From positions 19,350-83,349 of the forward strand of contig JAIEOU010000003.1 of NCBI GenBank assembly GCA_019750255.1: a stretch of 64,000 nt of DNA, in the 5' to 3' direction. This stretch comes from Patescibacteria group bacterium (lineage in GTDB: Bacteria > Patescibacteriota > Minisyncoccia > Phycocordibacterales > UBA918). Below the pieces are notes generated by a model. That model saw only the letters and a list, made by a program, of their open reading frames with translations. It was not told the origin of the DNA and searched no databases. Positions 1-60,523 of the stretch are shown piece after piece (the first letter of the stretch is position 1; each line of letters starts with the position of its first letter). The position numbers and the translations under genes were made by a program.

Positions 1-1999
1 CGCTTCCGCCCACCTTGACCGCAGTGACCGACCGCGACTCTCCGCAAAAATGATTGTCCATCCTGAAAACGAAATCTTTAGCCTCATCAGTCTTGGTAGC
101 CACGTGGTAAAACACGACCCTGGGTTTCGACAACTACTCGCTGACAGCGCGGTTCCCGAACACACATTTCATAGTGCCTTGCGCTGGGTGGTGATTGGCC
201 ACCACCGCAGCAAGCAGCGCTCCCGCTGGTGGGGAAGAGACATGCTTTCAAAGAACCCACCACTTGGTAGCGACCTCGCATACGGCACCACCTATCTGCT
301 CTCGCGCTTTACCCGCGACATCCGCAGTAGTACCGTTTTTTCCACCATCGCCAGCACCAACACCTTTAGCGATGAAATCGTTGGGGAAGTTGAAACTGCC
401 CTCTCCCGTCTCTCGGCCGCGAACGTACTCTTACTTGGCGATAGCGGGGTAGGGAAAATGGACCTGCTGGTATACGTACAAAAACGTCTCGACCAAGGAA
501 AATCTCTTGGTTCCATTACTGGATACAATCTCCACGTCCTTGATACCGCACGACTCTTTACCACGAGCCCGGACAAGCACACCTTTACCAACACCTTTTT
601 GTCTGTACTCACGGAAGCCGCCAATGCGGGTAACGTCGTAATTATCATCGAGGGTATCAGCGTCTTTATCAAAGAAGCTGAAGCGCTAGGAGTATTTATT
701 CCCGAACTCCTTGACCCATACCTCGCTTCACCGTCACTTCATATTATTGCAACCGACACCCCGGGAGCATTTCATGCCACACTCGAAACGCGCGGTGGCT
801 TTACCAGACGATTTGCCGAAATCACCCTCGAGGCCACCAGCCATGAAGGCACCCTCCGGGTACTCGAAAGTGTCGCTGTTGTAAACGAATCAGTCTACAA
901 CGTCCTCTTTACCTACCCGGCGCTTGAAGCCATCGCGCTGGGAGCTGACCGCTACATAGTGGAGGGTGTAATGCCAGGCAAAGCAGTAGAGCTCCTTATC
1001 GACATCGCCGGTAAAGCGGCGCACAGCAATCAACCGCTTATCACTGCCGACTTTGTGTACAGCACTCTTGGTGAGCGGACCGGTATTCCGGCCGGACCGA
1101 TTGACGCCAAAGAACGCGACCGCCTCCTCAATCTTGAAACCATTCTTCATGAGCGCGTGATTGGTCAAGACGCAGCTCTCCAGGCCGTTGCACGCACCAT
1201 GCGTCGTGCTCGCGCGGGAGTTCAAACTAGTGAACGTCCGATTGGTTCATTTTTATTTCTCGGCCCGACCGGTGTCGGAAAAACCGAAACCGCCAAAGCG
1301 CTCGCGCACGTATTCTTTGGCAATGAACAAAACATGCACCGGTTTGATATGACCGAATACAGCGAAGCTGGTTCACTTGCACGCCTCATCGGCAGCGCCG
1401 AATCATCAGGCGGACTTTGTGATGCCCTGCGAGAAAAGCCCTACGCCGTTGTACTCCTCGATGAATTTGAAAAAGCACACAAGACCGTACATGACCTGAT
1501 GCTCCAAATCCTCGACGAGGGCCGTTTCACCGACGCCCGCGGGGAAGTGGTGAACGCCCGTAACACCATTGTGGTAGCGACCAGTAATGCCGGGAGTGAC
1601 CTCATCATGCGCACCGTCGCGCAGCGCGGCGAGCTCGCTACCCTCGAGGCTGAAATTATTGACCACATCATAAACAGCGGCCTCTTCCGTCCCGAGCTCA
1701 TCAATCGTTTTGATAGTACCGTCATCTTTGAGCCACTTAATAAAGGAGCCCAGACTGAAGTGGCGCAGCTCTTCCTCCGCGAACTCGCAGATCGCATGAA
1801 AGAAAAAGGCTACACCCTCGCGATTACTTCTGACCTTATTGACGTAGTAGTTAAGGAAGGTTATCACCCTCAGTTTGGTGCTCGCCCCATGCGCCGTGCG
1901 GTACAGGACGTGGTCGAAGAAGCCATCGCCACCCGTATCATTGCAGGCACCACGAAACCTGGCGACACCATCACTCTCACCAAAGCCGACTTTGCCTAG
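1..1999 (+). CDS. ClpC/ClpB-family AAA+ ATPase, probably 5'-partial; D1 domain degenerate, D2 canonical
   Basis: The reading frame is open from the window start, and the ORF track gives Met at 50. D2 Walker A is FLFLGPTGVGKTE and Walker B is VVLLDEFEKAH. D1 has a Walker A-like LLLGDSGVGKM but its Walker B is replaced by IIIEGIS. The C-terminal Clp D2-small domain is present. Confidence 0.75.
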   Translation, partial: ASAHLDRSDRPRLSAKMIVHPENEIFSLISLGSHVVKHDPGFRQLLADSAVPEHTFHSALRWVVIGHHRSKQRSRWWGRDMLSKNPPLGSDLAYGTTYLLSRFTRDIRSSTVFSTIASTNTFSDEIVGEVETALSRLSAANVLLLGDSGVGKMDLLVYVQKRLDQGKSLGSITGYNLHVLDTARLFTTSPDKHTFTNTFLSVLTEAANAGNVVIIIEGISVFIKEAEALGVFIPELLDPYLASPSLHIIATDTPGAFHATLETRGGFTRRFAEITLEATSHEGTLRVLESVAVVNESVYNVLFTYPALEAIALGADRYIVEGVMPGKAVELLIDIAGKAAHSNQPLITADFVYSTLGERTGIPAGPIDAKERDRLLNLETILHERVIGQDAALQAVARTMRRARAGVQTSERPIGSFLFLGPTGVGKTETAKALAHVFFGNEQNMHRFDMTEYSEAGSLARLIGSAESSGGLCDALREKPYAVVLLDEFEKAHKTVHDLMLQILDEGRFTDARGEVVNARNTIVVATSNAGSDLIMRTVAQRGELATLEAEIIDHIINSGLFRPELINRFDSTVIFEPLNKGAQTEVAQLFLRELADRMKEKGYTLAITSDLIDVVVKEGYHPQFGARPMRRAVQDVVEEAIATRIIAGTTKPGDTITLTKADFA

Positions 2000-2267: not shown

Positions 2268-2459
2268 ATGGGAAAAAACCAACGGGTGAAATGTTTGGGG
2301 TGCAAGCAGATGGTGCGAAATTTTTCTTCACACCACTGCACAGGTTACGTGGAAAAAAAACTGACTCCTCGTGCAGTGCGTAATGCACGACCCGTGCCGA
2401 ACACGGGTAAGGCCGCACATCCAAACAACCAAAAGCGGGGCACGGAAGGTTTACGCTAA
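2268..2459 (+). CDS. Small (63 aa) putative zinc-ribbon protein, tandem paralog of 2069..2254
   Basis: ATG at 2268 preceded by ggagacaggtg. Carries the motif CLGCKQMV-x6-HHC, with the same spacing as the upstream paralog. Confidence 0.35.
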   Translation: MGKNQRVKCLGCKQMVRNFSSHHCTGYVEKKLTPRAVRNARPVPNTGKAAHPNNQKRGTEGLR

Positions 2460-2577: not shown

Positions 2578-3699
2578 ATGACTACCATAACCCATAATCT
2601 TCGTGGCGCCCTCCTCGCATTCATACTGTTGCTTAGTGTTTTTATTACCAGCCCAGCAGCGGAAGCAAAAAGCCTGCCGCCCGTTATTACCGACAGCACC
2701 GACCTGGTAATCGGAGACAGCGTCTCGTGTCCCAACCTCACCCGCAGCCTCTCTCGTGGCATGCGTGACGAGAGGCAGGTACGCGCTCTTCAATCATTTC
2801 TCGCTACCCACTACTCGTACCCCGAGGCCGATCTCATCACTGGTTACTTTGGCCCCACTACCGAAGGTCTCGTGCGCCGTTTTCAAAGTGAAGCGGGAGT
2901 CCCGACTCTTGGCATGGTCGGCCCGCTTACTCGGGCCGCAATTGGCAAAGCCTGTGGTGCGAGCGGACCCGGACTCACCCTCACTAGTCCAAAAGCCGAC
3001 ACCGTATATGGTCTTGGTGATGACATCACGGTGACCTGGAACACCACTTCAACAGTAGCCTCGACCACGGGCATGTTTGTGCAGCTCGTAGCTGTCGATA
3101 CCAAGGAAATTATGAAATCAGAATTTGTAGAATACGCGAGCGGCACAGCTACTCTCAGTACCGATGAGTTTTGTAACGGAAATTTCTCTGACGCCATCTT
3201 CGGCGGTTGTGAAAATATTAAAGAGGCGCTAAAGGAAGGGAAGCTGCCGTTTAGAATCTACGCCGCTCTCTATACCCCCAAGGACACGTGCTTTGGTTTC
3301 TGTGCCTCTACCAGCTCTGCCACCATCCTCACCAAAACGATGGGTAACACGTTCCACATCGTCGATAGCGGAAGCAAGGACTTCAGTATCAGGAGCGCGT
3401 CTGGCAGTACACCCTTTGCCGCCGAGTTTCTGATTGGCAAAGAGGGAGAATTCAGCCTCGACTTTGGTGACGGAAAGAAGGCGAGCGTGACCGTACCCGG
3501 TATCCGCTGTATCACCACTCCCTGCAACACACCGGTAAAATCAGTTCCACACACCTACACCCGCCCCGGCACCTACGCTGCCACCCTTACACAAATCGTA
3601 AAGAACACCTGCGAAGGCAGCGGCGACACAGTCTGCGCCGCCTGGTACTCCAGGGAAGAGATGATTGGCACCATCACGGTTGAAGTGAAGAAACGCTAA
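2578..3699 (+). CDS. Secreted Cys-rich protein with a putative peptidoglycan-binding (PG_binding_1-like) domain
   Basis: N-terminal signal peptide MTTITHNLRGALLAFILLLSVFITSPAAEA. The segment RALQSFLATHYSYPEADLITGYFGPTTEGLVRRFQ resembles PG-binding domains. The mature part contains many Cys residues. Confidence 0.55.
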   Translation: MTTITHNLRGALLAFILLLSVFITSPAAEAKSLPPVITDSTDLVIGDSVSCPNLTRSLSRGMRDERQVRALQSFLATHYSYPEADLITGYFGPTTEGLVRRFQSEAGVPTLGMVGPLTRAAIGKACGASGPGLTLTSPKADTVYGLGDDITVTWNTTSTVASTTGMFVQLVAVDTKEIMKSEFVEYASGTATLSTDEFCNGNFSDAIFGGCENIKEALKEGKLPFRIYAALYTPKDTCFGFCASTSSATILTKTMGNTFHIVDSGSKDFSIRSASGSTPFAAEFLIGKEGEFSLDFGDGKKASVTVPGIRCITTPCNTPVKSVPHTYTRPGTYAATLTQIVKNTCEGSGDTVCAAWYSREEMIGTITVEVKKR

Positions 3700-3726
3700 C
3701 GATCCAGTCATAGTCCCCATAGCGGA

Positions 3727-3765
3727 AACAACCGGCACATCCCTACGGGATGTGCCGGTTGTTTC
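3727..3765 (+). terminator. Strong hairpin terminator
   Basis: Arms aaacaaccggcacatccc and gggatgtgccggttgttt with an 18-bp stem. Confidence 0.55.
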
Positions 3766-3832: not shown

Positions 3833-6562
3833 ATGATAAGCCGCAACGAAATCCGTGTCCGGGCCAGGGAATTTTCAAAAGAATGGGAACGTGAGGTAGA
3901 CGAGGATGCTGAAGCTAAAAGTTTTTGGGACGCTTTCTTTATGGTGTTTGGTGTTTCCCGTCGCCGCGTTGCTGCCTTTGAACACTTCGTCCACAAACAA
4001 GACGGCGGGCAAGGGTTCATAGATGTGCTGTGGCCGGGAGTAATGCTCGCCGAGCACAAGAGCCGCGGCAAGAGTTTGGACCGCGCCTTTAGCCAAGCCA
4101 AGGATTATTTTCCTGGCCTCAAAGACGCCGAGCTCCCACGGTATGTGGTCGTATCTGACTTTGCCCTTATTCGGGTCTACGATTTGGATAACGATACGGA
4201 AGTTGAGTTCTCACTTTCCGACCTCGACAAACACATCGAACTCTTTGGATTTATATCCGGCTACGAAGTGCGTAAGTACGAAGCGGAAGAAGAGGCGAGT
4301 ATAAAAGCAGCAGAGCTCATGGCGAAACTTCACGAAGCGATTGAAGTGACCGGCTATAGCGGGCACGACCTCGAAGTGTTTCTCGTGCGTATACTCTTTT
4401 GTCTCTTTGCCGATGACACCGAGATATTTGAAAAGGGGAGTTTCAGGAGGTACATCGAGCAGCGCACGAGCGAAGAAGGGAGCGACCTTGGATTTCGCCT
4501 CCTTGAACTTTTTGACGTCCTCAACACTCCCGACGCAAAGCGCCAAACCACGCTTGATGAACAGCTGTCCGAGTTCCCCTACATCAACGGCGCAATCTTT
4601 GCTGAACGAATCGGGTCAATCACCCTCGACCACAAAGCACGAGCAACTCTTCTCACGTGTTGTGCCTTTAACTGGTCGGGTATATCAGCAGCTATTTTCG
4701 GCTCACTCTTCCAGGGGGTAATGAATAAGCAAGAGCGTCGTGAACTAGGTGCTCACTATACAAGCGAGATCAATATCATGAAGGTGATTCAACCCCTTTT
4801 CCTCGATGAGCTCTACAACGAATTCGATGCCGCAAAGAAAAGCGCAAAGGCCCTCGATTCCTTCCACCAAAAACTGGCGAGCCTTACCTTCCTCGATCCA
4901 GCCTGCGGCTGTGGCAACTTCCTCGTTACCACCTATCGCGAGCTTCGTCGTCTCGAAATTCAGGTACTGTTGAAAAAGCGGAAGCACAATACGAACACTC
5001 TCCTCGCCTTCGGAGCCGGTGAACTTTCGCGCCTTCATGTAAACCAGTTTTACGGAATTGAGATTGAGGAGTTTCCTGCACTCGTTGCTCGTACTGCCAT
5101 GTACCTGGCCGACCACCAAATGACGCGTGAACTGCAAAAAGAGTTCGGGCAAGAGAAGGCCCGTATCCCACTACAGGAGCCGGCAACCATTGTGCACGGG
5201 AACGCTCTTACCATTGAGTGGGCAGAAGTAATTGCTCCGGAGAAACTTTCGTATATTATCGGCAACCCACCGTTTCTGGGCCAGACCTATCAAAGCAAAC
5301 AGCAGAAAGAAGAAGTCGCAAAGGTACTGTCGGGAATAAAGAAAACAGGCACGCTCGATTTCGTATCTGCGTGGTATGGGAAAGCTGCCGATCTAATGAA
5401 GCAAAATCCTAAGATACAGACTGCACTAGTATCAACTAATTCCATCACCCAAGGTGAGCAGGTGGGTATTCTTTGGAAGTATCTACTGGAGAATGGGGTA
5501 AAAATTAACTTCGCTCACCAGACTTTCCGCTGGACGAACGACGCAAAGGGCAAGGCGGCGGTACACTGCGTCATTGTCGGTTTTGCACTTTTCGATAAAC
5601 CTACCAAATGGCTTTATCTATACTCGAATATAGACGGTGAGGGAACGGAGGTAGGGGTTAAAAACATAAATCCATATCTTGTTGATGGACCAAATATTCT
5701 TCTTGAGAGCCGAAGCAAGCCGGTTTGTAAAGCACCAAAAATGATTCGAGGCAGCCAACCAACGGACGGGGGCAACCTTTTACTCACACAAGAAGAAAAG
5801 GACACACTTGTCATGAATGACCCATTGGTTGCAAAATTCATACGACCATTCTTGATGGGTAACGAATTTATTAATAATATTAAACGTTACTGTCTATGGC
5901 TCAAAGATTGTTCGCCAAATGAACTCAAGGAAATGCCTGAAGTAATGAGACGAATAGAATCCGTTCGTAAAGTTAGACTAGCAAGTAAGAAAGCAGCGAC
6001 CCAAAAGTTAGCGTCTTTACCATTTCTTTTTGGAGAAATTAGAACATCTGAATCATGTTACCTTGCAGTACCAACTGTCTCATCAGAGAACAGAAGTTAT
6101 ATTCCAATCGGATTTTTGCCCCCAGATGTTATTGCGGGAAATAAAATATATTTCATACCCAACGCAAATATTTTTAACTTTGGAATCCTGACTTCAAAGA
6201 TGCACATGGTCTGGACTCGATACACATGTGGCCGGCTGAAAAGTGATTACAACTACTCTAATAAAATTGTCTACAACAACTTCCCGTGGCCAGGGTGTGG
6301 TGCAAATGTCACTGACCTAAGTGTAGAAGCGAAAGAAAAAATCGAAGCCGCAGCGCAAGCAGTACTCGATGCTCGTGCCCAGTTCCCAAACTCATCCCTC
6401 GCCGATCTCTACGATCCACGCACCATGCCACCAGTACTCGTAAAAGCTCACGCCGCCCTCGACCGTGCCGTCGATGCCGCCTACAGCTACCGCGACACTG
6501 GCCTCGACGCCGACCGCATTGCTTTCTTGTTTGAGCGTTACCAAAAAATTATTAATTCTTAA
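3833..6562 (+). CDS. MmeI-family type IIL restriction-modification enzyme (fused endonuclease, N6-adenine methyltransferase and target-recognition domain)
   Basis: The N-terminus matches MmeI (MISRNEIRVRAREFSKEWE...AKSFWDAFFMVFGV...). A PD-ExK-like motif GFIDVLWPGVMLAEHK is present. MTase motif I is FLDPACGCGNFL and motif IV is GNPPFLG. Length is 909 aa versus MmeI at about 919 aa. Confidence 0.85.
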   Translation: MISRNEIRVRAREFSKEWEREVDEDAEAKSFWDAFFMVFGVSRRRVAAFEHFVHKQDGGQGFIDVLWPGVMLAEHKSRGKSLDRAFSQAKDYFPGLKDAELPRYVVVSDFALIRVYDLDNDTEVEFSLSDLDKHIELFGFISGYEVRKYEAEEEASIKAAELMAKLHEAIEVTGYSGHDLEVFLVRILFCLFADDTEIFEKGSFRRYIEQRTSEEGSDLGFRLLELFDVLNTPDAKRQTTLDEQLSEFPYINGAIFAERIGSITLDHKARATLLTCCAFNWSGISAAIFGSLFQGVMNKQERRELGAHYTSEINIMKVIQPLFLDELYNEFDAAKKSAKALDSFHQKLASLTFLDPACGCGNFLVTTYRELRRLEIQVLLKKRKHNTNTLLAFGAGELSRLHVNQFYGIEIEEFPALVARTAMYLADHQMTRELQKEFGQEKARIPLQEPATIVHGNALTIEWAEVIAPEKLSYIIGNPPFLGQTYQSKQQKEEVAKVLSGIKKTGTLDFVSAWYGKAADLMKQNPKIQTALVSTNSITQGEQVGILWKYLLENGVKINFAHQTFRWTNDAKGKAAVHCVIVGFALFDKPTKWLYLYSNIDGEGTEVGVKNINPYLVDGPNILLESRSKPVCKAPKMIRGSQPTDGGNLLLTQEEKDTLVMNDPLVAKFIRPFLMGNEFINNIKRYCLWLKDCSPNELKEMPEVMRRIESVRKVRLASKKAATQKLASLPFLFGEIRTSESCYLAVPTVSSENRSYIPIGFLPPDVIAGNKIYFIPNANIFNFGILTSKMHMVWTRYTCGRLKSDYNYSNKIVYNNFPWPGCGANVTDLSVEAKEKIEAAAQAVLDARAQFPNSSLADLYDPRTMPPVLVKAHAALDRAVDAAYSYRDTGLDADRIAFLFERYQKIINS

Positions 6563-6574
6563 ACGCAAAAAATA

Positions 6575-6605
6575 AACCAGCCACCGTTCGGTGGTTGGTT
6601 TTAAT
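6575..6605 (+). terminator. Rho-independent terminator after the RM gene
   Basis: Stem aaccagccacc/ggtggttggtt followed by ttaatttt. Confidence 0.5.
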
Positions 6606-6660: not shown

Positions 6661-7419
6661 CTACTTTCGTAGCGACGCAATCAGGGCATCGAGCTTCTCG
6701 TTTAAGTCACGCTCTTTGCGATCACTCTCTGGCTGATTGATGGCGCTCGAGGCCACGCCGATAATAATGCTGAGGAGCACAAACACCGTGGTGACAATAA
6801 AGCCGATGAAGAATAGGCCGGCCCAGGGATACACACTCATGAGTGGGCGCACTACATCGCTCCACGCATCCAGGGTCATGATTTGAAAAAGTGTAAAGAG
6901 GGCGTTGTCGAGATCGGCGAAGTGTTCCGGTGAAGCCGCGCGAAAGAATTTTACCGACAGCACGGCACAAACATACAAAATCACCGACAGCACACACATC
7001 ACGGCAAAGCTGCCCATGAGCGCCCGACCAATACCAGAGAGCACATCTCGGAACGAGGGTACAACACTAAGGAGCCGAAGAATACGAACTGCTCGCAAAG
7101 CCGATACGTTACCAAGTCCCGCAATGCCAAGGAGGGGAAGAAGCGTCACGAACACTACAGAGAAATCAAACCAGTTCCAACCGCTGCGGAAAAAACTGAG
7201 GCGAAAAACACTGATACGAAGTACGAGCTCGCTCACAAAGACAGCGAGGAACAGTTTATCAATCACAAGTAATGTTGGGCCGATACTGGTCATGACGGCA
7301 GGGTAGGTCTCGAGCGCGAGCGTAATCGCATTAAGCACGATTGCGGTGATGATGAATCGCTCAAACCACACATTTGAAACCAACGCTTGGAAAAAAGATG
7401 TCTTATTCATGCCCGACAT
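6661..7419 (-). CDS. Ion-transport protein, voltage-gated cation channel family (NaChBac/CavBac-like 6-TM)
   Basis: S4-like segment LRAVRILRLLSVVPSFRDV with regularly spaced Arg. Pore loop FTLFQIMTLDAWSDV followed by an S6 helix. Multiple TM helices. Confidence 0.7.
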   Translation of the reverse strand: MSGMNKTSFFQALVSNVWFERFIITAIVLNAITLALETYPAVMTSIGPTLLVIDKLFLAVFVSELVLRISVFRLSFFRSGWNWFDFSVVFVTLLPLLGIAGLGNVSALRAVRILRLLSVVPSFRDVLSGIGRALMGSFAVMCVLSVILYVCAVLSVKFFRAASPEHFADLDNALFTLFQIMTLDAWSDVVRPLMSVYPWAGLFFIGFIVTTVFVLLSIIIGVASSAINQPESDRKERDLNEKLDALIASLRK

Positions 7420-8030
7420 GGTACGACACCAGGTGGAATTCGACTAGTGCGACGATATGGGAAATGGTATTCAGAGAGACCTCACTGTTTTCGTGTGTAA
7501 TGAAACGCGAATTCCGACAGCTGGGGGAAGGTGCCACGGGACCACAGTACGCATGTACCGTATGCGGCCGTTAGTTCATTTTGGTCTGAGAGCGTACCAC
7601 TCGTCCGCCGCTATGTGTTCCATGGCTTGCCGAAGTCTCCAGCATTAGCCCATTACATATATACGTATAGGCGCAAAAGCCCTGGTATCTAAGCGAAGTA
7701 ACGTGAGGCGTGCTCCAAGCCCAAGAAACGTCCGTTCACACAAACCGTTACCTAACGTGGTTACACACCAAGCGCTGGCCGTGGCCGCGGAACAGTGTTT
7801 CATGCGAATACCGGAACAGCACTCTGACCTGCGTAACCATGATGACCGCGGGGTCAAAACGAGGGGGTCTGTTGACAGGGTCGTCAGTATTGCGTGTGGC
7901 TTGCTTTTTTAAATAAAGTATGCTATAGTTCTTGCAACCTTCGCGGTTATTATTGGCACGTAGACCTCTGCTCCACTTGTGTGGGCGTATCTAATAGGAA
8001 AGCGTGCCGCGATCTCATTTACACACATAT

Positions 8031-19483: not shown

Positions 19484-20284
19484 ATGAATGACCGCTTTGT
19501 TCATAAAAAATCGCTAGGACAACACTTTCTTAATAGTCCGGTAATTCCTAGAAAGCTGTGCGACGCAGCCGACCTCATTCCGGGGGAAACGGTTGTAGAA
19601 ATTGGCCCTGGTACCGGTGCGCTCACCGCAGTATTGCTTGAGCGCGGGGTAAAGGTCATCGCTATCGAAACCGACGAAAGGGCTATTCTGCACCTCGAGG
19701 AACGCTTCGCGACAGAAATAATGGCTAAAATGCTAGTCATATCGGCACAAGACGCTCGCGAACTTGATCTCACTCAGTTAGGTCTTCACAATCAGGAGTA
19801 TAAAGTGGTAGCGAATATCCCTTACTACCTCTCGGGGTTTCTCTTTCGGACGTTCTTAGAAAACACGCTTCAGCCCTCAACTCTGGTTTTTTTGGTACAG
19901 AAAGAGGTGGCGGAGCGCATTGCTCGCGCTAAAAAAGCCTCGCTCCTATCTCTGTCGGTAGCCGTGTTTGGTAACCCTACATATATATGTACTGTAAAGC
20001 GGGGCAACTTCACCCCGGCTCCCAAAGTGGACTCGGCTATTATCGCCGTCCGTGACATTTCACGGGAACGCCTTATGGATATCGACCCTCGCCACTTTTT
20101 TTACTTACTTCACTTAGGCTTCGGGCAAAAACGTAAACAATTGCTTGGCAACCTAACCGCGGCCTATGAACGAACCACCCTCGAGCGTATTTTCAACGAG
20201 CAGAAATTGAATCTCAACATAAGGGCAGAGGACTTGTCTGTACCGCAGTGGGTTACTCTAGTCCACGCCTTACCACCACAATAA
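19484..20284 (+). CDS. rsmA: 16S rRNA (adenine1518/1519-N6)-dimethyltransferase
   Basis: MNDRFVHKKSLGQHFL... with the SAM-binding motif VVEIGPGTGALT, typical of KsgA. Confidence 0.85.
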   Translation: MNDRFVHKKSLGQHFLNSPVIPRKLCDAADLIPGETVVEIGPGTGALTAVLLERGVKVIAIETDERAILHLEERFATEIMAKMLVISAQDARELDLTQLGLHNQEYKVVANIPYYLSGFLFRTFLENTLQPSTLVFLVQKEVAERIARAKKASLLSLSVAVFGNPTYICTVKRGNFTPAPKVDSAIIAVRDISRERLMDIDPRHFFYLLHLGFGQKRKQLLGNLTAAYERTTLERIFNEQKLNLNIRAEDLSVPQWVTLVHALPPQ

Positions 20285-20397
20285 GCACCTCTTTATCCTC
20301 AGTTATTGCCCTATGTACACTAAGTTCTCCCCAGCTTAATCACATCTTGTTCGGTGTTCGTACACGGGAAGGGCTTCGACACTGCTATACTTTACGT

Positions 20398-21294
20398 ATG
20401 TTAGGTGGCATTAATCCCCGAGTGCTCGGATCGAGCTTTATTGGCTTAGCGCTCGTGTGTGGTGCTTGGGTTCTCAATTCCTTGCGGACGGCTCCCACCA
20501 CACCCCCCGAAGCCGCGGTGTACCTCGTTCAGGAAAATGCTCCAGTTCGGAACGCTCTTTCAACAGAAGACCAGAACACTGACGGCATCGAGGACTGGAA
20601 GGAGCCGTTCCTGACTGCTGCGCCAGTTATCTTAAACACCAGTTCCAGCTCAAATGAGCGAACAGGCACCCTCACCGAACAGGTAGGGATTAACCTCATG
20701 GAAAGCATGCTGATGGCGGAGAGCTTTGGTGCGGCCGGTGCGTCAAATGAGCAGCTCATCAAAAATTCGACCGAGCAGGCTTTTCTTGCAAATCGGGACC
20801 GCATCTATACCAGTAGCGACATCACGGTACTAACAAACCCTGAATTAGCGTCCATCCGCGACTACGCGAATGCGGTTGCTTTGATTCTCTCTACGAATGA
20901 TGTAAAGGGCTCAAAAAACGAGCTGCTTCTTTTTGACGAAGCGGTGCGCACTGGTAACCAGCAACTATTTGCTCAGATTACCCGCAAGGCAGACATGTAT
21001 AAGATCTATCGTGACGAGCTCCTCAAACTGCCCGTTCCACTAACCTTAACCCAGGAACACTTACGTCTTATTAATGTTTTTAATGTCATGGAGGCCAATA
21101 TCAGATCTATGACTGAACTTGACACCGACCCGCTAAAGACGCTCGTCCGACTGGAAAACTACCAAGATGACACCACCGAACTCGGTTTGGCATTGAATTA
21201 TTTTTATACTGGAATTTCTAAATTCCCTGACCTCTTCTCACCAAACGATCCAGCTCTTGCCTTTACCACCTTTGGTCAGTTGCAACAACAATAA
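20398..21294 (+). CDS. Hypothetical N-terminally membrane-anchored protein, first gene of the T4SS-like operon
   Basis: Internal Met followed by TM helix SSFIGLALVCGAWVL. An extended -10 tgctatact lies 6 nt upstream (leaderless). Confidence 0.4.
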   Translation: MLGGINPRVLGSSFIGLALVCGAWVLNSLRTAPTTPPEAAVYLVQENAPVRNALSTEDQNTDGIEDWKEPFLTAAPVILNTSSSSNERTGTLTEQVGINLMESMLMAESFGAAGASNEQLIKNSTEQAFLANRDRIYTSSDITVLTNPELASIRDYANAVALILSTNDVKGSKNELLLFDEAVRTGNQQLFAQITRKADMYKIYRDELLKLPVPLTLTQEHLRLINVFNVMEANIRSMTELDTDPLKTLVRLENYQDDTTELGLALNYFYTGISKFPDLFSPNDPALAFTTFGQLQQQ

Positions 21295-21304
21295 GTAATG
21301 TTCT

Positions 21305-23035
21305 ATGAAAACTCTTAACTTTCACTATTTCAATAAGCTCGTCTTTGGTTTTGTCTTCGTCCTGTTTGCGTTTACTACGGTATATATTCCACAGGACCAC
21401 ACACCGAGAGCGGAGGCACAAAACGTTGACCCCGCAGCGGTAGTCCAGCGAGAACGAGGGTGGTTCCAGTCACTCCTCGACTCTGTAAGCTTGACCGGAA
21501 CCTTTAAATCGGGCCTTGCTTCACTTGGTATTAACACCGCACAGTGGAGCGTGACGAGCATATTAAACGGTCTGGCCTGGGCCGCAGCCAAAAACATCCT
21601 TTCGATGATTCAGCGCGATATTGTGCGCTGGATTAATTCTGGTTTCCAAGGGAGTCCCGCGTTTATCCAAGATCTGGGAGGGTTTATCACCAACATAGCC
21701 GACGAAACGGCGGGGCAGTTGATTCAAGAAATCGGCGGGCCCTTATCGTTCGTATGTTCGCCGTTTCAGTTAGACGTACGAATTGCTGTTGCCTCCGCCT
21801 ATAACCGTACCCGCGATAAGAATGCTCGGCGATGTACCCTCACCGGCGCTCTGCAGAATATTCAAAACTTTATCGGCGGCGATATGAATCAAGGTGGCTG
21901 GGATTCATGGATTAGAATTGTGCACCAACCACAGTCTTACACTCCGCTCGGCTCTGCCCTCGATGCGAGCGCAGAGCTTGGTATCCGAATTCGTACCGCT
22001 CAAGGTCGCGAGGTAAACCTGCTTAACTGGGGCGGGGGATTCATGTCGAGCAAGGTTTGCGAAACAGTACCAGGCCCAAGTGGTGACGAGGAAAAATGCC
22101 GTGTTTCAACACCAGGTAATGTTATTGCCAACCAACTCAACCGGAGTTTAGGTCTTGGCGACGAATCGCTCATAGCCGCCGATCAGATTAACGAAATCAT
22201 TGGCGCTCTGATGCAACAGATGGTGAAGCAAGTACTAACCGGGGCAGGGGGGCTCCTCGGTGCGGGCGGTGGACAAGGCAGTAACTCCAAGTACACTGAT
22301 CCTAATTTCAACGTTGACCTCTTTACCGCAAAGACAGAGATTCAGGCAAATAGTAACGAGGGTCGGAAACTAATGATTGAAGCCTTTGCTGCTGAAAGTG
22401 AATTCTTAGATTTAGCGCAGAGCTTTATCGTTCGATACCAAAATGAGTACTCTGCTGATGGTGCGGTACAGGCAAGAGCAGCCGCCGCTTACAATGAGGC
22501 TCGTGAAGTCTTACCAAAGATACAAGACAATCTCACAAAGCTGCAAGCTATCCTTGCCAACTTTGACAGCGCGCCGAATTCTCAGGTGCAACAACAAGTT
22601 CTCCAGGACTTCACCGCCCAGTTTGCTTCGTTTAGCAACCAAATTCAGGTTGACGCAGCGCGCGAGCGGTGGATATCCGCCTTTATTGGCATGGGACCTC
22701 GACCAACGCCAGTAGCAGACAGCGTACTCGATAGTGCGGGTGAGGCGCTTTCAATCGAGGAGCTGTATCTGGATCTCGTTAATTCGGCTATTGACCAATA
22801 CGAAACACTGACAAACCCCAGTCCCGCAGAAAAGGTGGCGTACAATGAGGCTTTCGCTATCCTACCTGACATTCAACGTAACGTAATTGATCTACGAGAC
22901 ATCATTGACGCTCTTAAGGCCGGCGACAATGATGCCGAGGCGGACTTTACAGCCATTAAGCCTGACCTCCACACTGAAGTGGAGGTGACAAAAGCCCGCG
23001 TTGACTGGGAAGCGGCGCTCGGTACTTTACCGTAA
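21305..23035 (+). CDS. Hypothetical secreted protein (signal peptide; Gln/Ala-rich C-terminal half)
   Basis: Signal peptide MKTLNFHYFNKLVFGFVFVLFAFTTVYIP. 576 aa. Confidence 0.45.
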   Translation: MKTLNFHYFNKLVFGFVFVLFAFTTVYIPQDHTPRAEAQNVDPAAVVQRERGWFQSLLDSVSLTGTFKSGLASLGINTAQWSVTSILNGLAWAAAKNILSMIQRDIVRWINSGFQGSPAFIQDLGGFITNIADETAGQLIQEIGGPLSFVCSPFQLDVRIAVASAYNRTRDKNARRCTLTGALQNIQNFIGGDMNQGGWDSWIRIVHQPQSYTPLGSALDASAELGIRIRTAQGREVNLLNWGGGFMSSKVCETVPGPSGDEEKCRVSTPGNVIANQLNRSLGLGDESLIAADQINEIIGALMQQMVKQVLTGAGGLLGAGGGQGSNSKYTDPNFNVDLFTAKTEIQANSNEGRKLMIEAFAAESEFLDLAQSFIVRYQNEYSADGAVQARAAAAYNEAREVLPKIQDNLTKLQAILANFDSAPNSQVQQQVLQDFTAQFASFSNQIQVDAARERWISAFIGMGPRPTPVADSVLDSAGEALSIEELYLDLVNSAIDQYETLTNPSPAEKVAYNEAFAILPDIQRNVIDLRDIIDALKAGDNDAEADFTAIKPDLHTEVEVTKARVDWEAALGTLP

Positions 23036-23053
23036 CAGCCGCACATCTCTTAC

Positions 23054-25273
23054 ATGACACGCCTGCGCCAGCTCAATTTTCTCTACTGCCTATCACTCTG
23101 TCTTGTAGTGCTGGTTTTGGTACTGCCAACCCTCGTGTCGGCTCAGCAGGGTGGTGCTCCTGTTACCGCCTCAGAACAAAACACGCTTATGATGCGGGTG
23201 CTCTGGTGGATAGTCGCATCCGTCTTTGGCGGCCTTACCTGGGCTACTGGTTTACTCCTCGACTATAGTATTAGGGAGCTGGTAATTAATTTCGGTAGCC
23301 TCTACCAAACCTCAGGTTTAGGAGTAGCAGTAAACAACCTCTGGGGAGTGGTGCGCGATCTATTCAACCTCACGTTTATCTTCGGGCTCATTTATATTGG
23401 GTTCCGCATGATTATCAATAGCGATGACAGCGGGGCCAAGAAGGCGATCGTTAACCTGATTATCGCGGCACTGCTCGTTAACTTCAGTCTGTTTATCACG
23501 AAAACCGTCATCGATTTTTCCAATATTGCAGCGGTCCAGATCACCCAAGTAATATACCGGGGCGGAACCGCCACCAACCAATCCATCAGTGTAGCGTTTG
23601 GTGTCCAGATGGGACTCTCGAGTCTCTGGGGACAGACCCAAGAGCAAGCAAATACAGCACGTCTACAAACAGGGGGAGATCTGCCAGGACAAGGGGGGCT
23701 GCTCTATATATTTGGGGCGATGATCCTCTTTTTGATTGCAGCATTTTGTTTTGCGGCGGGAGCAATACTCCTCTTTGTCCGCTTTATTGCCCTGAATATC
23801 ATGATGATTCTTTCTCCCATCATGTTCCTTGGCCGAGTGTTTGAACCACTGCAGACCTATTCCTCTGCCTATTGGAAGAAGTTCCTGAGCTACTGCTTTT
23901 TTGCCCCAGCGTTTCTTTTAATGCTGTATTTCTCTCTCTATATCCTCGGTCAATTCACTGGCTCTATCCGCAATTCAAGTGGCCTCGCGGCCGAGCTTGG
24001 TCCAGGCGCCACTGGAGTTAACGCAATTGCAGCACTGCTGATGTCAGGCGGGTTCCTGATCGCCTCAGTGCTGGTCGCGCAAAAGATGAGTGGGGCAGCC
24101 GGAAGCATGACGGTTAAGGTGGGAAACAACCTGCGCGAGCGGGGACAGCGTATGATTGGTGCCTCAACGTTTGGAGCTGGCGCCTACGTCGGCCAAAGGA
24201 CTCTCGGTCGCGCCAGTGCCCGACTGTCTGACTCAGATACCATGAAGAACTGGGCATCGAGAAACCCAACAATGGGTAGAGCTGCGCTCAAGGTTACAAG
24301 TGCAGTAGGGGATGCATCATTTGATGGACGCGCCGCTCTCGCGGCAGCAGGTGTTAAAGGTCTTGGTAGTGCAACCAAGGGAGGCTATGAAACGCGCATG
24401 AAGGAAGCCGCTAAATCTGATAGGGAGTTTGCTGATACTCTCGGTGAGCAAAAGCTTGCTGACGCGGCGACACAAGCCGGAAGAACAGAACGAGCTTCAC
24501 AAATTGCTCCGGCAATAGCCACGATTAAGGCCGACTCAACAACCGAAGGTACCGCTGGCTACGAACTTAAGCAGACAGAGACTAAGCAGGCGAATGCACG
24601 AACAGTCACCTTAGCGGCTAATAATGAATTGTCTTCGATACAGCAAAACAGTAGAGCAGCCCAAGAGCCAGAACTCCAGAAGATTGCACTCTACCAAGAA
24701 CAGTTAGCCGCTGCGACAGACCCGACAGTGATAGCGAGCCTTAAGGATAAAATTAAAGCCAGCACCGACAAAGCTAAGGAGATTGAAGGAAATTTTGATA
24801 CTGCCACTAAAGCAGCGCAACAGAAAGTTACTGCTGCCCAGGCAGCCGAAAAAGGTATCGAGGCTCAGATTAAGTCAATCAATGACAAAATTGCCAAACA
24901 AGCGGAAGCGCGGTTTACCTATGCTCGCCAACTTACACTCATTGAGAGCCGAAAAAAGAGTCGCGATCGCTACACCGTAAAACTTCCTCGTGCCGTTAGT
25001 GGTGGAGCGGGCGCGGCCGGAGCGGCAGCCGCAGGGGCAGGTTTGTACGCAGCTGGGACTGCCGGGGCAGGGGCACTGGCTCTTGGTAGTGTCGTAAATT
25101 CGTATGGTGAAAGCTATGGCGCTCAAGTGGAAGCGTTAGAAAAAACCTACGGCAAAGACGGGACTAAGAAAATAAAAGCTTCGGAGCAAAAGAATAAAAT
25201 GAAAGAGCTCGGTGAAGTTTTGAAAGAAGAAGGGGTGATACCTAAAGAAAAGAAAGCTGATAAGGATGATTAA
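23054..25273 (+). CDS. VirB6/TrbL-like polytopic membrane protein with long C-terminal coiled-coil/Ala-rich tail
   Basis: Signal peptide followed by at least 6 TM helices, then a hydrophilic region of about 350 aa (KAKEIEGNFDTATKAAQQKV...). This architecture is typical of monoderm T4SS VirB6 homologs. Confidence 0.5.
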   Translation: MTRLRQLNFLYCLSLCLVVLVLVLPTLVSAQQGGAPVTASEQNTLMMRVLWWIVASVFGGLTWATGLLLDYSIRELVINFGSLYQTSGLGVAVNNLWGVVRDLFNLTFIFGLIYIGFRMIINSDDSGAKKAIVNLIIAALLVNFSLFITKTVIDFSNIAAVQITQVIYRGGTATNQSISVAFGVQMGLSSLWGQTQEQANTARLQTGGDLPGQGGLLYIFGAMILFLIAAFCFAAGAILLFVRFIALNIMMILSPIMFLGRVFEPLQTYSSAYWKKFLSYCFFAPAFLLMLYFSLYILGQFTGSIRNSSGLAAELGPGATGVNAIAALLMSGGFLIASVLVAQKMSGAAGSMTVKVGNNLRERGQRMIGASTFGAGAYVGQRTLGRASARLSDSDTMKNWASRNPTMGRAALKVTSAVGDASFDGRAALAAAGVKGLGSATKGGYETRMKEAAKSDREFADTLGEQKLADAATQAGRTERASQIAPAIATIKADSTTEGTAGYELKQTETKQANARTVTLAANNELSSIQQNSRAAQEPELQKIALYQEQLAAATDPTVIASLKDKIKASTDKAKEIEGNFDTATKAAQQKVTAAQAAEKGIEAQIKSINDKIAKQAEARFTYARQLTLIESRKKSRDRYTVKLPRAVSGGAGAAGAAAAGAGLYAAGTAGAGALALGSVVNSYGESYGAQVEALEKTYGKDGTKKIKASEQKNKMKELGEVLKEEGVIPKEKKADKDD

Positions 25274-25282
25274 TATTCACCT

Positions 25283-25816
25283 ATGAACCCAACTATTGCT
25301 GACGAACGCCTCTATCAAATCACCGACCCTGCCTATCGCGACTACATTTTAAGTGGCGACACGACTGACCTGGCTATTATTCTTGGCTCGACCCATAACT
25401 TAGACGAGCAGGCAGTGGGAGTACTTGAGAATGCGATTGATCTTTATCTTTTATGGCTCCTCGACGCCACCGGCCTGGCGACATTTATTAGTCGTCAATG
25501 CGACCTCTCATTAGATGATGCCGCGGTACTGGTTGCCGCTATAGACCTTGCCCTACCTGAAGACGTTCTCCAAGCACACGCACACCCAGAGGCGATGTTA
25601 CAGGCAGCTCCGTCACCAACTATTGCCACCGAAATTGCCGCCACCGAAGCCGCACTTGCGCACATCTCAACCGTGCGCACGATGGCGCGCGACATGGAGG
25701 ACCTAAAGAGCCAAGCACCGCAGGATAATGCTATCTATAAATCATCTCAAGATACCATTCGGCCCGACAGCACACAGGCCGACACCTCTCGGTGGGGTAG
25801 TGGTGCTCAAAAGTAA
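25283..25816 (+). CDS. Hypothetical acidic protein
   Basis: ORF in the operon with no recognisable motif. Confidence 0.35.
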   Translation: MNPTIADERLYQITDPAYRDYILSGDTTDLAIILGSTHNLDEQAVGVLENAIDLYLLWLLDATGLATFISRQCDLSLDDAAVLVAAIDLALPEDVLQAHAHPEAMLQAAPSPTIATEIAATEAALAHISTVRTMARDMEDLKSQAPQDNAIYKSSQDTIRPDSTQADTSRWGSGAQK

Positions 25817-25886
25817 CGAACACATGGGGATACCGGGAGCCGCTTCGTCATATAACGGAGCGGCTCCATGTATAATGAACTAATCT

Positions 25887-26309
25887 ATGCGTTTTGAGGT
25901 TCCTCAGTTTATCGAGATCGAAGACCGCATCATAGGTCCTTTTAGTTGGCGTCAGTTTTTGTATTTAGGCGGCGGTCTGGGCATGGGAGTAGTGCTCTTT
26001 TTAACGACGCCCTTTATCGTTTTTCTTCTCATCGGCCTTCCTCTCGCCGTTCTGGCGCTGGCACTGGCTTTTTATCCAATAAATAATCGACCTTTTTCTT
26101 TCTTCTTGGAGGCGATGTTTAACTACTTCTACAACCATCGTCTCTATCTGTGGCGCCGCAAAGAGCAGGTAATCTATAAAAAGGAACCGGCCCCAAGCAC
26201 CGTGGTCGATGATCTTACCACCACAAGTACACAGAAGCCCCGACATCAGTCCATTTCCTCCCTGTCTCGCCAACTCGAACTGCAAGCACTCCAAAAAAAA
26301 GATTTATAA
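25887..26309 (+). CDS. PrgI/VirB3-like small 2-TM membrane protein
   Basis: RQFLYLGGGLGMGVVLFLTTPFIVFLLIGLPLAVLALALAF gives two adjacent TM helices. It lies immediately upstream of VirB4, the conserved VirB3/PrgI position. Confidence 0.45.
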   Translation: MRFEVPQFIEIEDRIIGPFSWRQFLYLGGGLGMGVVLFLTTPFIVFLLIGLPLAVLALALAFYPINNRPFSFFLEAMFNYFYNHRLYLWRRKEQVIYKKEPAPSTVVDDLTTTSTQKPRHQSISSLSRQLELQALQKKDL

Positions 26310-26312
26310 CCT

Positions 26313-26948
26313 ATGCCCAAAGCCACTCCAGCCAGCCAAGAATTCGTTAGTATTCGCGACATCCGCGAGGGTGTTGTGATGTTAAAAGGGGGACAGACGT
26401 GCAGCGTTCTACTGGCTTCTTCCATAAATTTTGCCTTAAAGTCACAAGACGAACAGCGTGCAATCTTGCTCCAGTTCCAAAACTTTCTCAACACGTTAGA
26501 TTTTTCAATTCAAATCTATGTACAATCTCGCCGCATGAACATCGAGCCCTACCTAGAGCTCTTACGAACACGAGAGGGGGATCAGGACAATGACCTGATG
26601 CGCGTACAGCTACGGGAATACATGGAGTTCGTCCGTACTTTTACCACCGAAGTCGACGTCATGACCAAAAGCTTCTTTGTTATAGTGCCTTACACACCAG
26701 CGCCACTTAATCTTTCAAAAAACCTGGGGTCATTCTTGGCGCAAGGCAAGTCAGCCCCCGCAACGACAGAGACGCGCTTCGAAGAACAGCGTGTTGCGCT
26801 TGAGCAGCGCATTGCGATTGTGAAGCAAGGACTCGATCGTATCGGCGTTCGCACGATTGCCCTTGGCAATGACGAGCTCGTTGAATTTTATTACCACATA
26901 TACAACCCCGGTGATCCTACCTCAAGCGCGCCCTCAGCCGACGTCTAA
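26313..26948 (+). CDS. VirB4/TrbE/CagE-family ATPase, N-terminal domain (separated from the ATPase domain by an in-frame TAA)
   Basis: IRDIREGVVMLKGGQTCSVLLASSINFALKSQDEQRAILLQFQNFLNTLDFSIQIYVQS matches the CagE_TrbE_VirB N-terminal pattern. It is in the same frame as 26958..28754. Confidence 0.55.
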   Translation: MPKATPASQEFVSIRDIREGVVMLKGGQTCSVLLASSINFALKSQDEQRAILLQFQNFLNTLDFSIQIYVQSRRMNIEPYLELLRTREGDQDNDLMRVQLREYMEFVRTFTTEVDVMTKSFFVIVPYTPAPLNLSKNLGSFLAQGKSAPATTETRFEEQRVALEQRIAIVKQGLDRIGVRTIALGNDELVEFYYHIYNPGDPTSSAPSADV

Positions 26949-26957
26949 TTAATAATT

Positions 26958-28754: not shown

Positions 28755-28768
28755 TACAATAAGCGAAC

Positions 28769-29518: not shown

Positions 29519-29583
29519 CTGCCTCTGGTATTCGCAGCCCTCTGCCGTGTTCAAAAATAACATTTCTGAGCGGTCGTACTGGT

Positions 29584-30552: not shown

Positions 30553-30556
30553 ACTT

Positions 30557-35525: not shown

Positions 35526-35819
35526 CGCTTCCTTCTGGTAGCGTTATTTTATACCCAAACCCTGGGGATAAACGCCACATAAATCCTTTAATAGCTCTGT
35601 AGAAGTCTCCTAATTACTCAAAAAAATGCCTCTCTTCTGCCTTAGTTTTCCCCAGACGATAGCCAACAAAATATTTCTCCCCAGACACAAAAACACAATC
35701 ACCAGCTCCACCAACACTATACACAAGAATGCTCACTCATTTGCGCCTTAAAGTACAACATATAATCGAGATATGCACACTTCCACAGCCCTAATAATAG
35801 AGAGTAAAATACTTTTAAA
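35526..35819. promoter_or_regulatory. AT-rich dnaA-dnaN intergenic region with DnaA-box-like motifs (candidate DUE/oriC part)
   Basis: ctggggataaac and ctatacacaag approximate DnaA boxes. The region is low-GC. Confidence 0.3.
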
Positions 35820-59339: not shown

Positions 59340-59423
59340 GGGTGGGCACATTAAACGAAACGAGATGTGGGTTCAAGCCCTCGGTTGCGGTTAGAAGGAC
59401 GTATACTAAAGGCACATTCTCGT

Positions 59424-60518: not shown

Positions 60519-60523
60519 TTACT

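Follow-up and report, generated by a model that had tools for sequence, protein, structure and literature searches.

The gene and its neighbourhood

We analysed a 64-kb stretch of a Patescibacteria metagenome-assembled genome (hereafter, the window) around an open reading frame whose 909-residue product, MBY0309692.1, is publicly annotated only as an "N-6 DNA methylase". The frame is full length and without a frameshift, lies exactly where a sequence-only reading of this DNA had placed a single 909-aa polypeptide, and its homologues start at the same MIS-NEIR N terminus. All five Pfam domains of the MmeI family were matched above the cut-off (all E <= 7e-25; Table 1). MmeI from Methylophilus methylotrophus (PDB 5HR4; TCCRAC 20/18), the Type IIL prototype, has the same five-domain order and a similar length (909 versus 919 aa), and the two proteins align end to end (query 2-907 to MmeI 3-903, E 9e-297), with 50% of the residues identical over the whole length and 45% within the target recognition domain (TRD). 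In addition, the PADLOC Type IIG model matched the full length of the protein.

Table 1. Features of the MmeI-family gene and its flanks, in window positions.
Feature	Position	Strand	Details
Perfect 19-bp hairpin	3725-3765	+	GAAACAACCGGCACATCCC / GGGATGTGCCGGTTGTTTC; fold z -6.3; no clean T-run after stem
MmeI-family Type IIL restriction-modification gene	3833-6562	+	909 aa, ATG start; NCBI protein MBY0309692.1
MmeI_N, PD-(D/E)xK endonuclease domain	3860-4345	+	aa 10-171; Pfam match
Catalytic residues D64 / E74 / K76	4022-4024 / 4052-4054 / 4058-4060	+	
MmeI_hel, helical spacer domain	4364-4600	+	aa 178-256; Pfam match
MmeI_Mtase, gamma-class N6-adenine methyltransferase domain	4826-5617	+	aa 332-595; Pfam E 2e-91
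Motif I, FLDPACGCGNF	4889-4921	+	aa 353-363
Motif IV, NPPF	5264-5275	+	aa 478-481
Tract of depressed GC3	5573-6172	+	codons ~581-780; GC3 0.22-0.42 versus about 0.55 upstream
MmeI_TRD, target recognition domain	5684-6292	+	aa 618-820; Pfam E 6e-78
Residues at published base-contact positions	TRD, aa 618-820		R639, Q642, K720, G734, E735, T748, V749, N770, K771, L802, K803, D805, N807
TRD core without a DNA-level alignment to L082, the closest relative	5719-6178	+	flanking backbone ~70-71% on both sides
MmeI_C, C-terminal domain	6329-6550	+	aa 833-906; Pfam match; GC back up to 0.57
12-bp GC-rich hairpin	6574-6601		T-rich tail on + strand, A-rich run upstream
Ion-channel gene	6661-7419	-	Ion_trans, E 4e-37

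The nuclease motif reads D64-x9-E74-H75-K76, and its D, E and K align to D70, E80 and K82 of MmeI; the D/E/H/K residues of the sequence-only reading are thus present, with a first spacer of nine residues rather than the ten it had counted. The nuclease residues in D-x9-E-x-K spacing, motif I and NPPF are identical in the two proteins; motif I and NPPF, also claimed beforehand, are intact and the catalytic residues unmutated on alignment. The nuclease D/E/K and NPPF were invariant in 120/120 homologues, and motif I was found as FLDPACGCGNF in 114 of the 120, with the core DPACGCGNF in at least 119. Morgan et al. 2009 (PMC2731913) describe the family by its nuclease residues, full-length similarity, methylase motifs I and IV, a TRD scaffold and the lack of a co-localised methyltransferase, and on the biochemical side by AdoMet-dependent cleavage 20(+/-1)/18 nt from an asymmetric site and by host protection through m6A on the penultimate adenine of a single strand. 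The protein carries all the sequence features among these. Elsewhere in the 64-kb window we found neither a companion DNA methylase nor a BREX gene, and no paralogue or piece of a second TRD; the other methylases are rRNA enzymes only (RrnaAD, SpoU). The view that no separate methyltransferase gene is needed, with motif I and NPPF in the same polypeptide, therefore holds. Nothing matching the gene turned up in a collection of E. coli genomes. By architecture and motifs, the assignment to an intact, complete, single-protein MmeI-family Type IIL enzyme, as had been proposed, is fully supported.

By homology to MmeI, one polypeptide would use its TRD to bind an asymmetric 6-bp site, flip the penultimate adenine and methylate it at N6 on one strand only, using AdoMet and protecting the host. 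On unmodified DNA, the N-terminal PD-ExK nuclease would instead cut about 20/18 nt downstream. The enzymatic activity, the cut distance and the one-strand methylation are all carried over by analogy with the prototype.

Upstream of the gene lies a PG-binding/PKD protein with a signal-like N terminus and downstream a convergent ion-channel gene, both in line with the secreted protein and ion channel described earlier, whereas two small tandem CxxC...HxC ORFs nearby, then called zinc ribbons, gave no Pfam match. The two hairpins flanking the gene, called strong terminators beforehand, are real; the upstream one has no clean T-run. The upstream hairpin is probably the terminator of the PG-binding protein gene, setting the restriction-modification (RM) gene apart as a separate transcription unit, and the downstream one could be a bidirectional terminator shared with the ion-channel gene. 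A generic promoter and terminator scan gave counts no higher than shuffles, and the two long hairpins stood out only when folded singly. The term "accessory block" finds no support in the surroundings, which are mostly housekeeping (ClpB, rpsO-pnp, with dnaA-dnaN about 28 kb away), and no tRNA or Rfam element was found near the gene as the mark of an integration site.

The database name, together with weak secondary hits of PADLOC and NCBIfam models for mad2 and DrmMI in the methylase and TRD regions, might suggest an inactive relic or a methyltransferase only, acting as an orphan epigenetic regulator or as the PglX-, DrmMI- or MAD2-like part of another defence system. We regard this as very unlikely. 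An undisrupted frame and a nuclease triad invariant across the clade speak against it, the best model is that of a full-length Type IIG enzyme (1221 bits, compared with 147 for mad2 in PADLOC), and the NCBIfam MAD2 model scores 15 bits, its cut-off being 720. PglX/BrxX of BREX and DrmMI of DISARM, which are described in the literature as targeting asymmetric 6-bp motifs with one-strand m6A, are homologous to the query in the methylase and TRD parts, with weak and partial matches. The query differs in having kept the nuclease domain at its N terminus, catalytic triad included. No brx, drm or mad partner gene was found within 10 kb of the RM gene and, given the intact triad as well, membership of BREX, DISARM or MADS is not indicated.

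The predicted target sequence

To predict the target, we mapped the published determinant positions on the MmeI alignment, verified the numbering and applied the published residue-base rules, a check that the sequence-only reading had itself proposed. Over aa 615-820 the TRD aligns to MmeI 618-823 without a gap, and L805 and N773 of MmeI are conserved in the query; the geometry of the 6-bp site should therefore be the same. At 9 of the 13 base-contact positions the residues differ from those of MmeI (RQKGETVNKLKDN versus YKAFYETNALERR), and the target should accordingly be another one. Lysine at the A723 position with glutamate at the Y738 position points to C at position 1, Arg/Gln at the Y642/K645 positions to G at position 2, Thr/Asn at the E751/N773 positions to C or Y at position 3, lysine at the A774 position without an arginine at the R810 position to C at position 4, and K-x-D at the E806/R808 positions to G at position 6. 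The predicted target is 5'-CGYCAG-3'. Positions 1, 2, 4 and 6 appear fairly well determined, with the rules for positions 1 and 2 being noisy by their authors' own account and rational position-1 changes having failed in MmeI; position 3 would be C or C/T. Thr at the E751 position is absent from the residues tabulated for any base.

PspPRI from Psychrobacter sp. PRwf-1 (CCYCAG 21/19), which we compared by its published description, offers a close parallel. Like the query, it pairs asparagine at the N773 position with a residue at the E751 position that is beta-branched and uncharged, and it reads Y at position 3; the E751-position residue is Val in PspPRI and Thr in the query. Its site has C4 and G6, and the query residues obey the published rules for both. 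Position 2 is the sole difference between CCYCAG and the predicted CGYCAG: the literature ties the Arg/Gln pair of the query to G, whereas the PspPRI site has C. We did not see CGYCAG among the characterised MmeI-family members of PMC2731913. In the window the predicted site occurs 61 times against 66 +/- 8 expected; it is not depleted, which supports neither side.

Base composition of the target recognition domain

The AT-rich tract noted in the sequence-only reading does coincide with the TRD, where both GC and GC3 are depressed. GC is 0.396 over the TRD (5684-6292) and reaches its minimum, 0.36, at 5851-6150; the other domains lie at 0.48-0.57. GC3 is 0.36 in the TRD compared with 0.54, falling to 0.22-0.30 around codons 660-760, and the 100-codon minimum of 0.24 is lower than in any of 440 windows taken from the remaining genes of the 64 kb (z = -3.9).

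Such a dip could be a passive by-product of protein properties, arising from residues with AT-rich codons (Asn, Lys, Ile, Phe, Tyr) or from low conservation with fewer GC-ending preferred codons. Composition does add to the raw dip, GC1 being 0.44 in the TRD and about 0.60 elsewhere, and TRD sites are on average less conserved (0.61 versus 0.71). However, GC3 itself is lower, and a deficit of -0.183 is left after the per-amino-acid expectation is taken into account, so amino-acid composition is rejected as the only cause. The TRD likewise fell under its per-amino-acid GC3 expectation in 73 of 78 homologues, which come from many phyla (mean -0.168, Wilcoxon p 4e-14). In a regression with conservation the TRD term was -0.150 (t -18), the effect of conservation was about zero and the deficit was present in every conservation stratum, so that lower site conservation is ruled out as the cause. 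A logistic model with amino acid, backbone GC3 and the adjacent base as covariates gave an odds ratio of 0.44 for the TRD, and its next-base term and gene bootstrap (confidence interval on the log-odds -0.89 to -0.71) ruled out a codon-context artefact. The by-product reading is thus largely refuted, and we consider it extremely improbable.

Among the 78 homologues, the TRD GC3 deficit of the query ranks at the 41st percentile, and its closest relatives also carry the dip. The AT shift is therefore a family trait rather than the trace of a particular acquisition: the AT-rich TRD is real but common to nearly all MmeI-family members, and it marks no special event in this gene. The dip becomes larger as backbone GC3 rises, and not even hosts of low GC have a TRD with more GC than its backbone. 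Tentatively, and at somewhat less than even odds, we propose that the specificity module (the TRD and, more weakly, the post-NPPF methylase part) carries a cross-phyla synonymous AT shift that grows with host GC and that, if not an artefact, would place the module under an evolutionary regime of its own. One possibility is a steady turnover of cassettes from an AT-biased pool; another is that a hypervariable segment is excluded from homologous recombination and hence from GC-biased gene conversion. We found no earlier report of TRD-specific GC depletion in a limited literature search, which is not proof that none exists.

Probable exchange of the target recognition domain

Modular TRD exchange in the MmeI family was already proposed in PMC2731914, and the clade studied here fits that idea: TRD identity is uncoupled from that of the backbone. 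Pairs 90-95% identical outside the TRD had a median TRD identity of 0.52, and the 120 homologues carried 64 determinant signatures. The query and the homologue P0002 share an identity of 0.79 outside the TRD and 0.54 inside. P0241 has 42% identity to the query in the backbone and 55% in the TRD, where 12 of the 13 determinant residues are identical. Judging from these patterns, TRDs of the family behave as an exchangeable module. The pair IPF4888/IPF5080 from Microcystis aeruginosa PCC7806, described in the same paper (PMC2731914), has a conserved backbone and a TRD identity of about 55%, a pattern seen many times in the clade of the query. With backbones 98.5% identical, that exchange is recent and demonstrable; by contrast, the nearest backbone to the query is 79% identical and synonymous sites are saturated.

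In a strong form of what had been drawn from the dip, the AT-rich tract would record a specific and fairly recent replacement of this TRD by recombination with a donor rich in AT, still short of amelioration to the roughly 50% GC of the host. It would account for a TRD GC3 that is the lowest in the window, for an identity to the nearest relative that drops from 79% to 54% in the TRD and returns to 80% in the C domain, and for a core that cannot be aligned at the DNA level between flanks that can (Table 1), the left edge of which shifts to 5276 or 5596 with other relatives; many homologues, moreover, come from low-GC Patescibacteria. We nevertheless consider it unlikely. A dip shared by 73/78 homologues, closest relatives included, and of ordinary size in the query does not single out this gene, and neither its scaling with backbone GC3 nor a TRD that is never GC-richer than the backbone is predicted by a simple donor-pool model. 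The best TRD relative is 61-62% identical, and a TRD-only search of 5.8 billion proteins for a donor gave a best match of 61%. Third-position identity to the three closest relatives is 0.2-0.6 throughout, including a patch at aa 361-430 with 97-100% amino-acid identity, where saturated third positions indicate purifying selection and not recent transfer. Recent recombination with these three relatives was therefore rejected. Whichever relative is compared, the synonymous sites have reached saturation, so that nothing recent is visible at the DNA level. Synteny with the closest relatives, sought to define an insertion, was not shared.

With no donor closer than 61% and saturated synonymous sites, an exchange event is neither shown nor dated, and the GC dip alone is no evidence for exchange in this gene. 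The earlier claim that the dip marks TRD swapping thus keeps a generic, weak support through the family-wide uncoupling, while as a mark in this gene it loses its force. Fast divergence of the TRD in place is a less likely alternative for this one gene. Nor does the gene resemble a phase-variable or shufflon-type specificity locus: tblastn found no second TRD as a silent cassette in the 64-kb window, the terminator hairpin was the only inverted repeat of note, and there were no tandem or simple-sequence repeats. From the behaviour of the family, the TRD of the query very probably derives from module exchange, though not a recent one. We put at roughly 85% the probability that an intact, stand-alone MmeI-family (Type IIL/IIG) enzyme with a family-wide AT-rich, exchangeable TRD is the right explanation.

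The locus adds one more probably active MmeI-type enzyme, from a Patescibacteria genome and with a predicted target. If confirmed, CGYCAG would be another usable specificity in a family valued for programmable recognition. Nearly all members of the family show a GC dip in the TRD, which for that reason must not be read as the sign of a recent swap. The family-wide synonymous AT shift raises a modest question on the evolution of exchangeable specificity modules; if the proposal of a separate regime is true, a within-gene GC3 trough may be a sequence-only marker of such modules, of which the gene described here would be one ordinary instance.

Gene, domains and surroundings

The sequence-only reading had placed the RM gene exactly (see the table of features) and had called its product a complete MmeI-family enzyme, an assignment that proved correct. 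All five MmeI-specific Pfam domains are found in the protein in canonical order, the full-length Type IIG RE-MTase model of PADLOC scores 1221 bits, and residues 2-907 align end to end with residues 3-903 of crystallised MmeI (PDB 5HR4; E 9e-297), with 50% identity overall and 45% in the target-recognition domain (TRD). In this alignment, the nuclease residues D70, E80 and K82 of MmeI correspond to D64, E74 and K76; the D-x10-EHK signature reported earlier therefore held for its residues and not for its spacer, which is nine residues rather than ten. The N6-adenine methyltransferase motifs I (FLDPACGCGNF, aa 353-363) and IV (NPPF, aa 478-481) are present as described. A mutated D, E, K or NPPF had been named as the mark of an inactive relic; all are intact and unchanged in 120 of the 120 closest homologues, among which FLDPACGCGNF is found in 114 and its DPACGCGNF core in at least 119. 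Every feature of the family that can be tested from sequence was found. An identical protein, encoded on a contig of 124 kb, is deposited at NCBI (MBY0309692.1, 'N-6 DNA methylase [Patescibacteria group bacterium]'). This is an ordinary, probably functional MmeI-type enzyme with a predicted target that can be tested.

Features of the RM gene and its neighbourhood (window coordinates)
Feature	Position (nt)	Strand	Residues (aa)	Remarks
ClpB-like ATPase	50-1999			upstream of RM gene
Two small tandem ORFs	~2069-2254, 2268-2459	+		CxxC...HxC; upstream of RM gene
PG-binding/PKD protein	2578-3699			signal-like N-terminus; upstream of RM gene
Upstream hairpin	3725-3765			19-bp perfect stem, z -6.3
RM gene	3833-6562	+	1-909	ATG start, 909 codons
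MmeI_N			10-171	Pfam E 1.4e-42
MmeI_hel			178-256	Pfam E 7e-25
MmeI_Mtase			332-595	Pfam E 2e-91
MmeI_TRD	5684-6292		618-820	Pfam E 6e-78
MmeI_C			833-906	Pfam E 4e-28
Downstream hairpin	6574-6601			12-bp stem, T-rich tail
Ion_trans channel	6661-7419			convergent; downstream of RM gene
rpsO, NYN-domain protein, pnp				downstream, beyond Ion_trans channel
dnaA-dnaN	34140-36914 (34-37 kb)	+		

By homology, the TRD would bind an asymmetric 6-bp site, the penultimate adenine would be flipped into the methylase pocket and methylated on one strand only, and unmodified DNA would be cut ~20/18 nt downstream of the site in an AdoMet-requiring reaction; no second methylase would be required (family properties from PMC2731913). 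No other DNA methylase, BREX, DISARM or MADS partner, paralogue or spare TRD was found in the window, which is consistent with a stand-alone enzyme and bears out the earlier remark that no separate methyltransferase gene is needed. The flanking strong terminators of the sequence-only reading were recovered as two hairpins, and the RM gene is therefore probably a monocistronic unit.

The nearby ion channel and secreted protein were also recovered, the latter as the PG-binding/PKD protein. The supposed accessory block did not hold up: the surroundings are chromosomal core, with a ClpB-like ATPase, rpsO and pnp as neighbours, and not an obvious island, and dnaA-dnaN places the window near the chromosomal origin. 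The RM gene is compositionally at home in its host, because the third-position GC (GC3) of its backbone, the protein outside the TRD, matches that of the host (0.54 and 0.52). In each of the three closest relatives the gene is surrounded by different genes, as expected of a mobile RM gene.

The two putative small ORFs upstream (61 aa and 63 aa, each in its own frame and starting MG..) are probably the 'zinc-ribbon ORFs' mentioned earlier; both carry a C-x-G-C-x2-M-V-x6-H-x-C motif, their mutual similarity is weak (E 2e-4), and neither has a Pfam match. Between the ion-channel gene and rpsO, ~580 bp (7420-8003) hold only implausible small ORFs and gave no tRNA or Rfam match. A co-oriented gene run (20248-32486, plus strand) with weak type IV secretion signatures (TrbL/VirB6-like, TraG/VirB4-like P-loop ATPase, T4SS pilin) may encode a conjugation- or competence-like apparatus; several of its ORFs have no family match. 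Type IV pilus/T2SS-type genes (PilB-like ATPase, PilM and following ORFs) lie at 43790-45481 (minus) and 59367-62120 (plus). Whole-gene GC reaches its lowest value in the window (0.409; GC3 0.34) in a gene for a DUF6671 protein (55445-56308, minus), which is foreign-looking in composition, more so than the whole RM gene. At 8727-9434 of L081, the locus of the homologue P0004, an HNH_5 nuclease gene directly follows the MmeI-family gene with a one-base overlap and is joined by a DUF3800 gene; the two may be an added defence partner, and the pair is absent from the window.

Predicted target

As the sequence-only reading had proposed, the published specificity positions were applied to the enzyme. 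The TRD alignment to MmeI is gap-free, which fixes the offset between the two numberings at +3, and the numbering was checked at all 13 known MmeI base-contact residues (the determinants). The predicted target is CGYCAG. The authors of the rules themselves call those for positions 1 and 2 noisy, and we therefore put the exact hexamer 5'-CGYCAG-3' at roughly 35-40%.

Predicted readout of each site position (MmeI equivalents in brackets)
Site position	Residues	Basis	Predicted base
1	K720 (A723), E735 (Y738)	both typical of C:G readers	C
2	R639 (Y642), Q642 (K645)	Lys/Arg, often with Gln, reads G:C	G
3	T748 (E751), N770 (N773)	Asn with top-strand pyrimidine; published: Ser or Glu for C, Val for Y as in PspPRI, Thr not tabulated	C or Y
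4	K771 (A774), N807 (R810)	Lys in C readers only; Arg absent	C
5	L802 conserved; V749 for T752	methylated adenine	A
6	K803-x-D805 (E806, R808)	K-D pair 'exclusively specifies G:C'	G

The characterised PspPRI site, CCYCAG, is one base off this prediction. CGYCAG occurs 61 times in the window against 66 +/- 8 expected, and is thus neither depleted nor enriched, a count that is neutral towards the prediction. The determinant signatures of two close relatives, P0002 and P0003, differ solely at the position-6 pair (K-x-D vs E-x-R). MmeI was engineered from C to G at position 6 by just this exchange of two residues, and the difference has the look of a natural specificity switch through point mutation.

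TRD exchange in the family and in the query

TRD and backbone identities vary almost independently across the 120 closest full-length homologues: in pairs whose backbones are 90-95% identical, the median for the TRD is 0.52 (range 0.40-0.97), and 64 different residue signatures occur at the 13 base-contact positions. Judged from these identities, the decoupling cannot be ordinary divergence and provides evidence of TRD exchange at the family level. It agrees with the Microcystis pair already in print (98.5% vs 55% identity) and with its authors' suggestion that recombination exchanges TRDs (PMC2731914), and allelic TRD substitution is on record for Type IIG genes (PMC2853133); TRD exchange in the MmeI family is already published.

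A modular history also fits the query. Against P0002, which is closest to it in the backbone, identity is 79% outside the TRD, 54% inside and 80% in the C domain; at the DNA level, a core (5719-6178) is unalignable with ~70-71% identity in the backbone on either side. The proteins with the best TRDs (58-62% identity) have backbones of just 56-60%, and P0241, with identities of 42% in the backbone and 55% in the TRD, shares 12 of 13 determinant residues. The left breakpoint of the unalignable core varies between relatives. The TRD, like others in the family, is likely to have a history separate from its backbone. Its identities of 0.79 outside and 0.54 inside the TRD, however, fall exactly on the median of the clade, a TRD-only search gave nothing above 61%, and saturation of third positions extends to every relative, including a stretch where amino acids are 97-100% identical; these comparisons establish no donor, breakpoint age or direction.

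A second mosaic patch (aa ~461-520, nt ~5213-5392) is seen against P0004 and P0005, whose identity to the query is 93-100% over aa ~346-435 and drops to 31-47% over aa ~466-500; P0002 and P0003 keep 72-88% identity there. It sits just past NPPF, where K487/S488/K489 of MmeI contact the minor groove, and the pattern is old, since third positions are saturated.

A synonymous AT shift in the TRD

The AT-rich tract that had been noted does coincide with the TRD, whose GC of 0.396 compares with 0.48-0.57 for the remaining domains. Amino-acid composition accounts for part of this drop (first-position GC 0.44 in the TRD, ~0.60 elsewhere). GC3 is 0.36 in the TRD and 0.54 outside it, falling to 0.22-0.25 near codons 680-740; the TRD minimum of 0.24 lies below each of 440 windows, 100 codons long, drawn from 32 other genes in the window (0.523 +/- 0.073; z = -3.9). 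The dip is thus confirmed as real and more than chance.

It is not special to the query. For comparison, reference genomes of many phyla supplied 80 homologous loci (L001-L083 with the three closest-relative loci), of which 78 genes were usable. GC3 was lower in the TRD than outside it in 71 of 78 (mean difference -0.146). Relative to the GC3 expected from the per-amino-acid codon usage of each gene itself, the mean TRD deficit was -0.168, negative in 73 of 78 (Wilcoxon p 4e-14); the query, at -0.183, stands at the 41st percentile, and its three closest relatives also show the trough. A GC dip is thus common across the MmeI family. Averaged over the family, the trough has a shallow onset just past NPPF (~aa 481), deepens over aa 630-780 and stops sharply at the border of the TRD and C domain. 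In query numbering, this family-wide shift covers aa ~481-810 and is weaker in the methylase part after NPPF. We found no earlier report of such a family-wide synonymous shift in a limited literature search. For the query, a generic modular history stands from the earlier TRD-swap proposal; the stronger claim, that the dip records recent replacement by a TRD from an AT-rich source, is not supported, given a family-wide dip, clade-median identities, saturation and no close TRD or donor.

Several causes of the family shift were weighed. The per-amino-acid control excludes amino-acid composition. Site conservation fails, as TRD-column residuals were -0.09 to -0.14 in each conservation stratum (outside, ~+0.03) and in a regression the TRD term was -0.150 (t = -18) and the conservation term ~0. 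Neighbouring-base context fails as well: a logistic model that took in the next base along with amino acid, backbone GC3 and the interaction of the latter two gave an odds ratio of 0.44 (log-odds 95% interval -0.89 to -0.71, gene bootstrap). TRD GC3 follows backbone GC3 (slope 0.69, r 0.88), and the deficit ranges from ~-0.04 in very AT-rich genes to ~-0.23 in GC-rich ones; simple regression to the mean of a donor pool is hard to reconcile with TRDs that are never GC-richer than their own backbones. Speculative causes are a constraint at the nucleotide level, an AT-biased donor pool, or a hypervariable segment that escapes homologous recombination and with it GC-biased gene conversion. The composition of the TRD is the sole part of these results that might repay more work.
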